Origin: a virus
Virus record (IMG/VR): IMGVR_UViG_3300024344_000003
Span: 3,711-67,710 of that record
Strand: one strand, 5' to 3'
DNA length: 64,000 nucleotides
The notes under the pieces were generated by a model. That model was not told the DNA's origin, ran no database searches, and saw only the letters and a program-made list of their open reading frames with translations. The position numbers were made by a program, and so were the translations under genes. Positions within the stretch are counted from its first letter, which is position 1, and each line of letters starts with the position of its first letter. Positions 34,829-41,280 of the stretch are shown here, in pieces.

Positions 34829-35323
34829 TTATCTATGTTTATCTCTTATCATATCACTAATAGATTTATTGTAAACCTTATCAGTATATGATTTGTTATT
34901 AAAAAAAATGTTTCGTTCTGAAGTTGGAATATCCTCTTCACCCAATAAGATCCTGTATATTCGGGATATAAGTTGACTACATTTAAATGAGGTTTTGAAT
35001 ATACTATATTTGATTGATGTTCTATTTCGATGTCTCCAAGCTTCGATCCAACCATCACGCCTTAGACGTTCCCAACGGTTTTTATCCCAAGAATAGGTAT
35101 AAACACCATTAATAAAGTCATTACGTGTAAATCGACCTTTGCAATCTAAATAGATTAAAAGTTCTAAATCCGCGTCTTTAAGATTATAAGTTTTACAAGC
35201 CCATTTTCTAACAAGCCTGTAATATTTAAATAATCCTATATCTCTTAAATCTTGCGCACTTAATTTCATTCTACTATAACTATGTCTTGTATTCTTATAA
35301 CATAGTATAGTTTGTCTTTCCAT
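34829..35323 (-). CDS. Putative winged-helix DNA-binding protein
   Basis: 164 aa basic; LELLIYL...FTRNDF...WERLRRDGWI resembles a MarR-like wHTH. Confidence 0.45.
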   Translation of the reverse strand: MERQTILCYKNTRHSYSRMKLSAQDLRDIGLFKYYRLVRKWACKTYNLKDADLELLIYLDCKGRFTRNDFINGVYTYSWDKNRWERLRRDGWIEAWRHRNRTSIKYSIFKTSFKCSQLISRIYRILLGEEDIPTSERNIFFNNKSYTDKVYNKSISDMIRDKHR

Positions 35324-35523
35324 TGTATACCATGCCCAGCGTGTTTATCGTAGTGAACAGTGTCATTTACGTTAACGCCTTCTACAAGGTTGCCAATTGA
35401 TACGATTTTTGCTTTTAAGTACCTGTTGTCAGTGTCTAATTTTTCAGTTAGTTCTAATCCTGCAACGGTAGTAGGCTTTTGCTTAATTTTTTCTACTATT
35501 ATATAGTTATTTACCGCTTTCAT
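35266..35523 (-). CDS. groES: Co-chaperonin GroES
   Basis: KAVNNYIIVEK...AGLEL...KIVSIG...VNVNDTVHY...IRIQDI; adjacent to GroEL. Confidence 0.85.
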   Translation of the reverse strand: MKAVNNYIIVEKIKQKPTTVAGLELTEKLDTDNRYLKAKIVSIGNLVEGVNVNDTVHYDKHAGHGIQWKDKLYYVIRIQDIVIVE

Positions 35524-37081
35524 GTCCTACTCTTATATTAGATATTACACAATCTGCGGAAATTATAGTAGAAACTACAGAAATTGCGTTCTTTAACGCA
35601 GTTTTTGTCACTAAGGCGGGGTCTACGATTCCAGATTTGATCATATTGACGCTTTTACCGGTTGTAACGTCGTATCCAACACCTTTTTTGGTCGGTGTTT
35701 CGTAGTTTTCAATACCAGCGTTTGCCATTATGGTAAAAAATGGAGATTTTATGGCTTCTACTAGTATTTTCTCCCCTATATTTTTAGGTTTTATACTATT
35801 TGCAGCGTTTAACAGCGCAATTCCTCCGCCAGGGACAATCCCTTCTTGTAAAGCTGCTTTAACTGCGTAAATAGCATCCTCAACTCTATCTTTTTTCTCC
35901 TTTAATTCTATTTTAGAGTTACCACCTACTTTAATTATGCCAACATAACCTGTTAACATAGCTAATCGTTCTTGTAATTTCTTCTTAAAAAACGGTTCTT
36001 TTTCGTTTTTTATTGATTTTTTAACAGTATCAATCCTTTCTTGTAGACTTTTCTTATCTACACCAGTTGTCAGGACTGTAGTTCTGTTATTAGTTACAGA
36101 TGTTACCACTTCGCCTAAACAATCTGGCTGGATCAGATCTAAATCATCTCCTAGTTCTTCGTTCATCACCGACGCGCCAGTTAAAAATGCTAAATCTTCT
36201 ATTGTATCAAACCTTCCAGCACCAAAACCAGGAGGATCTACAATGTTAACATTAATATTACCTTTAACTTTATTCATCAAAAGTGCCGATTTTACTTGAG
36301 GATCGACATCTGCAATAATTAATAATGATCTCTTATTCTTTATTACATGTTCTAATATACTTTGTATTTTTCTAATACTAGGTATTGTTGATGAAACTAT
36401 TAAAACTACAGGGTTTTGAAGTTCTGCTATCTGTTTATCTTTATTCGTTGCAAAATGTGATGATGTTAATCCACTATCGAACTGCACACCGTCTACTATT
36501 TCTGCATACGTTTCATCAGTATCACTTTCTTCCATTAATACTACGCCATCTTTACCTACTTTTTCGTAAGCTGACGCAATAATGCCACCAAGTTCCCGAT
36601 CATTATTACACGAAATCGTTGAAACGTCGGTAAGCTGAGTGCCAGATACTGCTTTGGAGCTTCTTGAAAGGTACTCCATAACCTTTTTACTTGCTGATTG
36701 AATTCCATTTTTAATATCTCTTGTCGATGCACCTAAATATTCAGGTTCACCCACTGTTTTTAATAGTGATTCAGCAAGGACGATAGCCGTAGTGGTACCA
36801 TCACCTGCTTCTTTCACTGTGTTTTTACTTGCTTCTTTAATAAGTGTCGCGCCTATATTTTCAACGGGATCAAACAAGACAACAGATTCTGCTACTGTTA
36901 CACCGTCTTTTGTGATCACTGGTTTTCCAAGTCCGTCTTCGTAAATTACACACTTACCGGAAGCACCAAGAGTAGATTTTACTGCAGTTGCTAGTTTTTC
37001 TACTCCACTCATAATTTTATTCTTGGCAGTATCGCCAAAATTAAGATCTTTCACGATCTCACTCGGATGATTAAATTCCAT
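35507..37081 (-). CDS. groEL: Chaperonin GroEL
   Basis: ITKDGVTVA, AGDGTTTA, EGIVPGGG, GIVDP motifs; 524 aa with no GGM tail. Confidence 0.95.
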   Translation of the reverse strand: MEFNHPSEIVKDLNFGDTAKNKIMSGVEKLATAVKSTLGASGKCVIYEDGLGKPVITKDGVTVAESVVLFDPVENIGATLIKEASKNTVKEAGDGTTTAIVLAESLLKTVGEPEYLGASTRDIKNGIQSASKKVMEYLSRSSKAVSGTQLTDVSTISCNNDRELGGIIASAYEKVGKDGVVLMEESDTDETYAEIVDGVQFDSGLTSSHFATNKDKQIAELQNPVVLIVSSTIPSIRKIQSILEHVIKNKRSLLIIADVDPQVKSALLMNKVKGNINVNIVDPPGFGAGRFDTIEDLAFLTGASVMNEELGDDLDLIQPDCLGEVVTSVTNNRTTVLTTGVDKKSLQERIDTVKKSIKNEKEPFFKKKLQERLAMLTGYVGIIKVGGNSKIELKEKKDRVEDAIYAVKAALQEGIVPGGGIALLNAANSIKPKNIGEKILVEAIKSPFFTIMANAGIENYETPTKKGVGYDVTTGKSVNMIKSGIVDPALVTKTALKNAISVVSTIISADCVISNIRVGHESGK

Positions 37082-40087: not shown

Positions 40088-40272
40088 ATGAACTATTTGA
40101 CTTATGTGTAGAAATACTAATATGGATTAGCAATGTATTCAATATAAGCTATCAAGAAGCTAATATATGGATATTTGTAATCATAGAACCTATAGTATTC
40201 TTTATAATGTGTATATATATTTATAAACTAAGAAATAAAATACACAAACTGAATACGAATAAAGTCAGATAA
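40084..40272 (+). CDS. Small membrane protein
   Basis: 62 aa with hydrophobic helices; ATGA overlap. Confidence 0.55.
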   Translation: MNELFDLCVEILIWISNVFNISYQEANIWIFVIIEPIVFFIMCIYIYKLRNKIHKLNTNKVR

Positions 40273-40276
40273 TATA
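40243..40276 (+). promoter_or_regulatory. Early promoter-like motif, copy 4
   Basis: CACAAACTGAATACGA-N8-AGATAATATA. Confidence 0.75.
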
Positions 40277-40720: not shown

Positions 40721-40970
40721 TTCAGTAAAAAAATACTTTGAGGATTTAAGCGAGCACGAACAAATGGCAAGAAAAAATGCTATACACAACGAGCTCGAAG
40801 TACGAAAATATTTATGGGTACTAGACTTTGAAATGGGTAGAGTATTCCTATATAATATCAGAAGAGAAGATCTACAACATGAAGATTATGAGGATTTACT
40901 AGTCCTAAAGGGACATAAGCCTACTAACTGTGAGTGGATGGTTGGTATATCTGATAGAATATATAGATAA
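40713..40970 (+). CDS. Early hypothetical protein
   Basis: 85 aa ORF overlapping the upstream stop. Confidence 0.6.
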   Translation: MSDSVKKYFEDLSEHEQMARKNAIHNELEVRKYLWVLDFEMGRVFLYNIRREDLQHEDYEDLLVLKGHKPTNCEWMVGISDRIYR

Positions 40971-41145
40971 AGCATTGATGCACTTCAAATTAAGAGTACA
41001 GAGTATATCTTAAATAGGAGTACAAAGCAGATGTAAGTCTTTATTTTGCGAAGTACGTTTCGAACCATTGAAAGAGTATGGGATGTGAACGTGAAGCACC
41101 CCTCGGTAACACAGTAGGCCTTGTGATGAAAACAAGAGGGGATTT

Positions 41146-41243
41146 GGGCGTGACTTGGAAAGTCAAGACAGTATCTCAACCGCGGCGTAAGCAAAGGTAG
41201 TAGACAGTATCTTGTAACGGGGGTTCGAATCCCTCCACGTCCA
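41146..41243 (+). ncRNA. tRNA/tmRNA-like RNA with alanine identity (98 nt)
   Basis: Acceptor GGGCGTG/CACGTCC with G3-U70, discriminator A, canonical T arm GGGGG-TTCGAAT-CCCTC; no canonical anticodon arm; CCA not encoded. Confidence 0.7.
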
Positions 41244-41246
41244 CAA

Positions 41247-41280
41247 CACAAATTAAATACGACAATAGTCGGATAATATA
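41247..41280 (+). promoter_or_regulatory. Early promoter-like motif, copy 5
   Basis: CACAAATTAAATACGA-N8-GGATAATATA. Confidence 0.75.

Follow-up and report, generated by a model that had tools for sequence, protein, structure and literature searches.

The element and its setting

We have studied a 98-base candidate RNA gene in a window of 64,000 nucleotides, the whole stretch of viral DNA analysed here. The source of the window is a virus record of 69,521 bp, which has overlapping ends and is estimated to be 100% complete. The primase-helicase of the phage is closest to that of Cellulophaga phage phi10:1 (42%), and its GroEL is closest to those of Flavobacterium phages (41%). We infer a Bacteroidota host and a marine origin. 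The complete phage genome contains no SmpB gene, and a search covering the tyrosine-integrase family found no integrase of that type. A scan of genome collections returned phage-like contigs in MAGs, two full Patescibacteria tmRNAs and nothing else, and thus identified no host; a close match was not found in any cultured phage. Contigs of the same phage family (L213, L216, L218-L221 and L223; compared loci are denoted by L numbers) were binned in MAGs of unrelated organisms (Aliivibrio, Ilumatobacteraceae, Planctomycetota, Rickettsiales), which is probably contamination.

The element sits within a 333-bp gap, with small plus-strand genes around it. The features of the region are listed below in window coordinates, TLD denoting the tRNA-like domain of tmRNA.

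35266-37081, minus strand: phage-encoded pair of GroES- and GroEL-like genes
38020, 38159, 39174, 40250, 41254 and 43367, plus strand: promoter-like motif with a constant 8-nt spacer, present six times and in each case ahead of a block of genes
40250-40276, plus strand: copy of the promoter-like motif, the probable start of a unit of three small ORFs, the module array and the TLD
40967-41044, plus strand: free-standing module M1, with conserved flanks and a variable insert; also in L070, L074, L120, L131 and L186
41047-41098, plus strand: free-standing module M2, whose core is the TLD cargo in L008 and L037
41099-41141, plus strand: free-standing module M3, with covarying outer stem and inner hairpin
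41146-41246, plus strand: TLD-only tmRNA-like RNA gene; mature RNA 41146-41243, 98 bases
41146-41152, plus strand: 5′ strand of the acceptor stem (G1, G2, G3)
41153-41163, plus strand: D-loop region of 11 nt, with GG at 41157-58 and the G19 equivalent at 41162
41164-41214, plus strand: arm equivalent to H2, the carrier of the cargo; outer module A
41178-41198, plus strand: inner module B, with a GNRA tetraloop, a 2-bp stem and a 3x3 purine-rich loop
41215-41218, plus strand: short connector UAAC, with the A334 equivalent (PMC8363625) at 41217
41219-41235, plus strand: T arm, with stem 41219-23/41231-35 and a canonical loop
41236-41243, plus strand: 3′ strand of the acceptor stem with U70, and the discriminator A73; 41236-41242 pairs with 41146-41152
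41254-41280, plus strand: next copy of the promoter-like motif, directly 3′ of the TLD, which would be the end of the upstream unit

The promoter-like motif is also found 3′ of the TLD in 22 relatives.

Structure of the element

The initial annotation had recognized a 7-bp acceptor stem with G3·U70, the discriminator A73 and a canonical T arm, all of which are found in place. Positions 74-76 are CAA; CCA is not encoded, and would be expected to come from the host. Between the acceptor stem and T arm lie 66 nt (41153-41218). The greater part of this is module A, a two-fold symmetric helix in which a direct repeat, noted initially and located at 41166-76 and 41202-12, forms a 5x5 internal loop. 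The helix that had been proposed (41164-68/41210-14) is supported by a compensatory change of A-U to G-C among five relatives sharing the module, and the suggested GUAA tetraloop lies at 41187-90. A 4-bp hairpin is possible in the D-loop region of the window copy, of which only 8 of 122 family members are capable.

Standard programs do not report the element. The Rfam tmRNA model gives it 34 bits (E = 4e-12) where the gathering score is 47, and a search of the window at the gathering cut-off gave no matches. Rfam nevertheless ranks tmRNA above tRNA for this sequence. ARAGORN returned nothing for the element at its default or at a relaxed score of 90, and only noise at 80. Rfam searches of 30 related loci by E-value gave matches to tRNA and the tmRNA clan, the remainder being weak and unrelated. 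A first search with the exact 3′ end returned only permuted tmRNAs of crAss-like phages, and a metagenome scan for CCA-ended copies returned genomic contigs, not transcripts. The crAss-like gut phages (L001-L005) have a permuted two-piece tmRNA with an acceptor and T arm nearly identical to those of the element, and in L003-L005 a further odd tRNA-like element follows it, with a weak twister-P1 match in L003.

Conservation in related phages

By itself the fold of the window element is only moderately stable (z = -2.1), and we therefore compared its relatives. Seven loci were retrieved by means of the next large ORF, and all seven have a matching element. A pattern based on the 3′ end matched at least 120 viral contigs. 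Selection by this pattern favours U70, A73 and the connector, and the conservation quoted is thus for a second set alone, 80 loci retrieved via a neighbouring protein and independent of the RNA sequence. A TLD is present in 58 of these, giving 57 distinct copies that were scored at positions to which the finder was blind. G3·U70 together with A73 is retained in 52 of the 57, the A334 equivalent in 56 and the G19 equivalent in 49, against a background of 0.43 for the last, while pair 4-69 takes five pair types across the same copies.

Among 38 aligned copies every cell of the acceptor and T stems is paired (456/456, 100%), compared with 45-55% in slid controls. Five pairs change on both sides, a number equalled in 0-1 of 500 shuffles, although two main haplotypes underlie much of this count and it does not represent many independent events. 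The helix equivalent to H2 carries more weight: all four Watson-Crick pair types occur at its first pairs when unrelated cargos are compared, and its mean stack is 5.7 bp, compared with 3.3 in shuffles. The stems are conserved in relatives with compensatory changes, a check that the initial annotation had called for, and because of this the window element is more than a chance fold.

The most frequent geometry is an unpaired loop of 10-11 nt with a connector of 3 nt. A loop of 9-12 and a connector of 3-4 gave the best fit in 37 of 57 copies; the window copy has 11 and 4. CCA is encoded in only a few members. The 57 distinct true tRNA genes in L006-L223 have CUA (50) or CAA (7) at positions 74-76 and never CCA, and the TLD has ends of the same kind. 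The tRNA-Met genes of these loci have an unpaired 1-72 position.

Conservation of the element is not absolute. Four protein-anchored copies have lost the G·U pair and kept the cargo. One clade has a non-alanine scaffold in the TLD slot, and another has no element. In L209 (4682-4773) the TLD has decayed, with broken T and acceptor stems and module A still there. From these cases the element is accessory, and alanine identity is dispensable for the carriage of cargo.

A tRNA-like domain lacking a tag

The initial annotation identified the RNA as the tRNA-like domain of tmRNA with no mRNA-like domain, and the geometry, the conservation and the absence of a tag support this. On sequence criteria, the element is confirmed as a genuine RNA gene and a tag-less, TLD-only homolog of tmRNA. 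The family has no conserved D stem, and its D-loop agrees with that of the TLD-only class, in which a loop of about 10-13 nt contains GG. The H2 equivalent is closed on itself and has no tag frame. None of 122 copies has an anticodon-like arm; such an arm was said to be missing from the outset, and because of its absence the accompanying suggestion that the RNA might absorb anticodon nucleases is not supported.

It had also been argued that there was no room for a tag ORF. There is indeed no tag, but an Ala-Ala-stop frame is formally present in the middle of the element. We reject this as a tag. The stop is the GUAA (GNRA) tetraloop, the frame vanishes where the same module has a GAAA tetraloop, and it is absent from five of eight other copies of the module. 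An ordinary or intron-containing tRNA was likewise rejected, there being no conserved D stem and no anticodon arm of 5 bp and 7 nt, as was a standard, permuted or intron-form tmRNA, for which neither a tag ORF with resume context nor pseudoknots were found.

The bases of tmRNA that we considered as contacts of SmpB (G19, A334, U17, C18 and A15) were mapped by position only. Of these, G19 and A334 are in contact with SmpB, and a G19C change eliminates trans-translation (PMC8363625). In the family the spacing from GG to the G19 equivalent is usually 3 nt instead of 4, there is no conservation of U17 and C18 (AAA in the window copy), and the connector reads AAC in place of GAC; full-length Patescibacteria tmRNAs also have AAC. 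The element belongs to the TLD-only class in all features accessible to such comparison, with the predicted SmpB surface partly matched.

Swappable cargo and the adjacent RNA array

As judged by comparison of the family, the middle of the element is cargo that can be swapped, and it forms part of a larger array of modules, something absent from the initial annotation. The middles range from 33 to 153 nt, and 121 copies contain about 80 types of cargo built from nested modules. A 14-mer is shared with free-standing flanking DNA in 66 of the 121, compared with 7 in an antisense-strand control. Between two phages with 97.8% identity over 8.4 kb the elements differ, and in a rough tree built from the anchor protein the cargo differs between sisters and recurs on distant branches. 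The modules, which are predicted to be folded, are interchangeable and are shuffled among related phages.

The window cargo consists of module B nested in module A. Module A is found with other inserts in six relatives (L067, L099, L101, L107, L115 and L255); a search with it alone found one new TLD, the other matches being chance repeats. Module B occurs alone inside TLDs, nested in another outer module (L075) and free-standing. The 175 nt upstream of the TLD are made up of modules M1-M3, each conserved with variable inserts, and parts of each occur inside the tRNA-like bodies of other genomes. M3, for example, is within tRNA-like scaffolds in L126, L186, L191 and L194. No module matched a family in Rfam 15 among the 30 related loci searched; M2 may resemble the P2 stem of c-di-GMP-I or 5S loop E, without Rfam support. 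Copied fragments of rRNA or tmRNA were tried as a source of the cargo and rejected, since word sharing was not clearly above that of shuffles; the rRNA comparison used two rRNA operons from a MAG that may not be those of the host. We found no description of a swappable-module array in the literature, within a search of limited coverage.

A very common array module lies about 100 nt upstream of the TLD in L008, L009, L010, L020, L042, L097 and L156 and is absent from the window. It can be read as a GC-rich stem with an insertion site, enclosing an H-type pseudoknot, and has no Rfam match.

Other tRNA-shaped RNAs are present in these phages. Minimal tRNA-like RNAs of about 44 nt, comprising an acceptor stem, a 9-nt GG loop and a T arm, are found in L013, L021, L037, L040, L042, L045 and others. 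Their acceptor stems covary and are non-alanine, and among the 45 distinct short elements only one has G3·U70. Non-alanine tRNA-shaped scaffolds with the same cargo modules as the TLD occur in L011 (at 3084), L062, L069, L092, L140 and L221, and in the clade of L182, L186, L191, L194 and L195 such a scaffold replaces the TLD. Flavobacterium phage FL-1 (KY421186; L224:2360-2536) has an unannotated tRNA-shaped element, missed by ARAGORN, with an acceptor, a Leu-like D arm and a T arm, and an insert of about 120 nt replacing the anticodon arm. Since FL-1 is in culture, it would allow tests of a scaffold of similar kind.

Possible function

The comparisons show an RNA that is predicted to fold as a tmRNA-type TLD with alanine identity, and whose H2 arm holds interchangeable structured modules. 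Such an RNA may be processed and alanylated by the host, bind SmpB, compete with tagging by host tmRNA and display decoy modules, a model to which we give an even chance. The TLD would be transcribed together with an early unit as its final element, and released by host RNase P cleavage, 3′ trimming and CCA addition. Host AlaRS would charge it, and host SmpB and EF-Tu would bind. Because it has no tag frame it would compete with host tmRNA for SmpB and stalled ribosomes, and the competition would lead to less tagging and proteolysis of nascent chains during infection. The weakest steps are that the protected, abundant RNA might also present its cargo, whose likeliest role would be to act as decoys for RNA-binding or defence proteins of the host, and that recombination might reshuffle the cargo modules. 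Cargo would be sterically tolerated because H2 projects outward from the ribosome (PMC8363625). Titration of SmpB or tag-free entry into ribosomes is plausible, and there is precedent. A molecule similar to the TLD of mycobacteriophage DS6A is reported to inhibit tmRNA strongly, perhaps via SmpB titration (PMC4131195). The main weaknesses of the model include the imperfect D-loop, and the copies lacking the G·U pair or the whole element.

We prefer this combination of tmRNA competition and decoy display to the alternatives, with moderate confidence. The tRNA-like body might be only a scaffold and processing signal, directing RNase P and stabilizing the cargo and upstream modules, with an alanine identity that is inherited or merely protective and trans-translation not the target. 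Non-alanine scaffolds carrying the same modules, including those that replace the TLD in the L182/L186/L191/L194/L195 clade, the A3-U70 copies that persist with cargo, and the location of the TLD at the end of, or within, a module array all point this way. Yet a pure scaffold gives no reason to keep a destabilizing G·U pair and two SmpB-contact bases at about 86-98% amid variable neighbours, and TLD-only genes stand alone without an array in DS6A and L127; we regard it as possible but doubtful. Tag-free rescue, in which the alanylated TLD with SmpB would enter stalled ribosomes, add one or more alanines and recycle them in aid of phage translation, would be in keeping with the CDS-less tmRNAs of mitochondria and plastids (PMC11915505) and with the template-free synthesis of polyalanine by TLD and SmpB in vitro (PMC3929946, PMC2481249). 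It is unlikely, however. Without a stop codon the release-factor step is lacking, Helicobacter pylori needs an intact resume codon and resumption is reported to be mandatory for ribosome dissociation in vitro (PMC2584231), and the DS6A-like molecule is described as an inhibitor (PMC4131195).

The RNA might instead be a decoy for toxins or defence enzymes that attack the acceptor ends or elbows of tRNA, rather than for SmpB. Candidate attackers include acetylases, nucleotidyl- or pyrophospho-transferases and HEPN nucleases. The many minimal acceptor-plus-T-arm RNAs in the same phages, of which 45 are distinct and whose acceptor stems vary, would suit this role, but it would not require the tmRNA-specific loop and connector, and anticodon nucleases are excluded by the lack of an anticodon arm, so that we consider it quite improbable. 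A resume-codon-like stretch in one upstream module of relatives raises the idea of half of a split tmRNA with its tag piece elsewhere, or one member of an antisense pair. The frame of that stretch is not conserved, and the module is absent from the window. Moreover H2 is closed on itself by covarying pairs, the element has no match above chance elsewhere in the genome, an antisense partner was not found in related loci, just two tag-like frames occur and both are on the strand opposite the late genes, and no permuted tmRNA rises above noise. This idea is largely refuted in silico and we give it very little credence. Least credible of all is the remnant of an integration site or a decaying tmRNA or tRNA pseudogene. 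The 3′ ends of tmRNA genes are common integration sites (PMC11915505) and there is one decayed copy (L209), but the complete genome is without a tyrosine integrase, the sequence differs from Bacteroidota tmRNAs, and the acceptor stem has both its strands, with compensatory changes. Covariation in over 100 copies contradicts decay. An attP fragment was also rejected, as comparison with Bacteroidota tmRNAs and the search for a tyrosine integrase gave no 3′-end identity to a host gene beside an integrase.

The competition and display model could be taken further. It is conceivable, though we think it rather improbable, that these marine phages possess a library of natural RNA aptamers that diversifies combinatorially and is borne on an SmpB-bound, alanylated TLD scaffold, stabilized and possibly ribosome-homing, each module blocking a different host RNA-binding or anti-phage protein. 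If true, this would be a natural counterpart of tRNA-scaffold aptamer display used in counter-defence. The nested swappable cargo and the array point to an undescribed phage repertoire of structured RNA that evolves like a counter-defence hotspot. Should the modules be aptamers or decoys, they would constitute a new RNA-based layer of anti-defence and a source of natural aptamers and scaffolds.

Comparison with known systems

A 'TLD only' tmRNA is on record in mycobacteriophage DS6A (PMC4131195, PMC11915505), and we locate its gene at L247:3479-3561. Like the present family it is phage-encoded in one piece, with G3·U70 and A73, no D stem, a short H2 arm, a 3-nt connector, no tag and no encoded CCA (the end is ACUA); ARAGORN misses it and its Rfam score is under the cut-off. 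A model built from the present family found the DS6A TLD as its best match in a test set of 28 loci, in which host tRNA-Ala genes were unmatched. The DS6A RNA differs in being a single 83-nt gene with a short hairpin, whereas in the present family the H2 arm is a hypervariable cassette of nested modules common to the adjacent RNA array. A further stand-alone TLD-only gene, with CCA encoded and a U tract, is found at L127:640-711 in an unrelated phage of 46.8 kb that has no module array.

Bacterial tmRNA (RF00023) has the same TLD architecture and alanine identity, but possesses a tag ORF and a pseudoknot ring and is about 370 nt in length, compared with about 100 nt here; the D-loop of the present family is usually one base shorter before the G19 equivalent. 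The tmRNAs of Bacteroidota (L225, L226) are like the family in its commonest loop and connector geometry, where tRNA is different, and differ from the element in sequence. The permuted tmRNAs of the crAss-like phages are identical to the 3′ end of the element at 27 of 28 positions. CDS-less tmRNAs are known in jakobid and oomycete mitochondria and in Mallomonadaceae plastids (PMC11915505). These too have lost the mRNA-like domain and kept the TLD, but each is the sole tmRNA of its organelle and the mitochondrial ones co-occur with nucleus-encoded SmpB, whereas the window phage has no SmpB and its host presumably keeps a full tmRNA.

The TLD-only RNAs described so far are those of one phage and a few organelles, to which the present family adds over 100 natural variants that escape standard annotation. 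The bases kept under selection can now be read directly, and whether a phage inhibits or bypasses trans-translation becomes testable.

In engineered tRNA-scaffold aptamer display the anticodon-side arm of a body shaped like tRNA gives way to a structured insert. Phages also make RNA decoys, such as pseudo-ToxI repeats and mimics of CRISPR repeats, and decoy RNAs diversify by recombination. Compared with both, the RNA described here has no known ligand, and is a natural one with a body of the tmRNA type. That TLD-only body is already known; the swappable nested cargo and the array are new.
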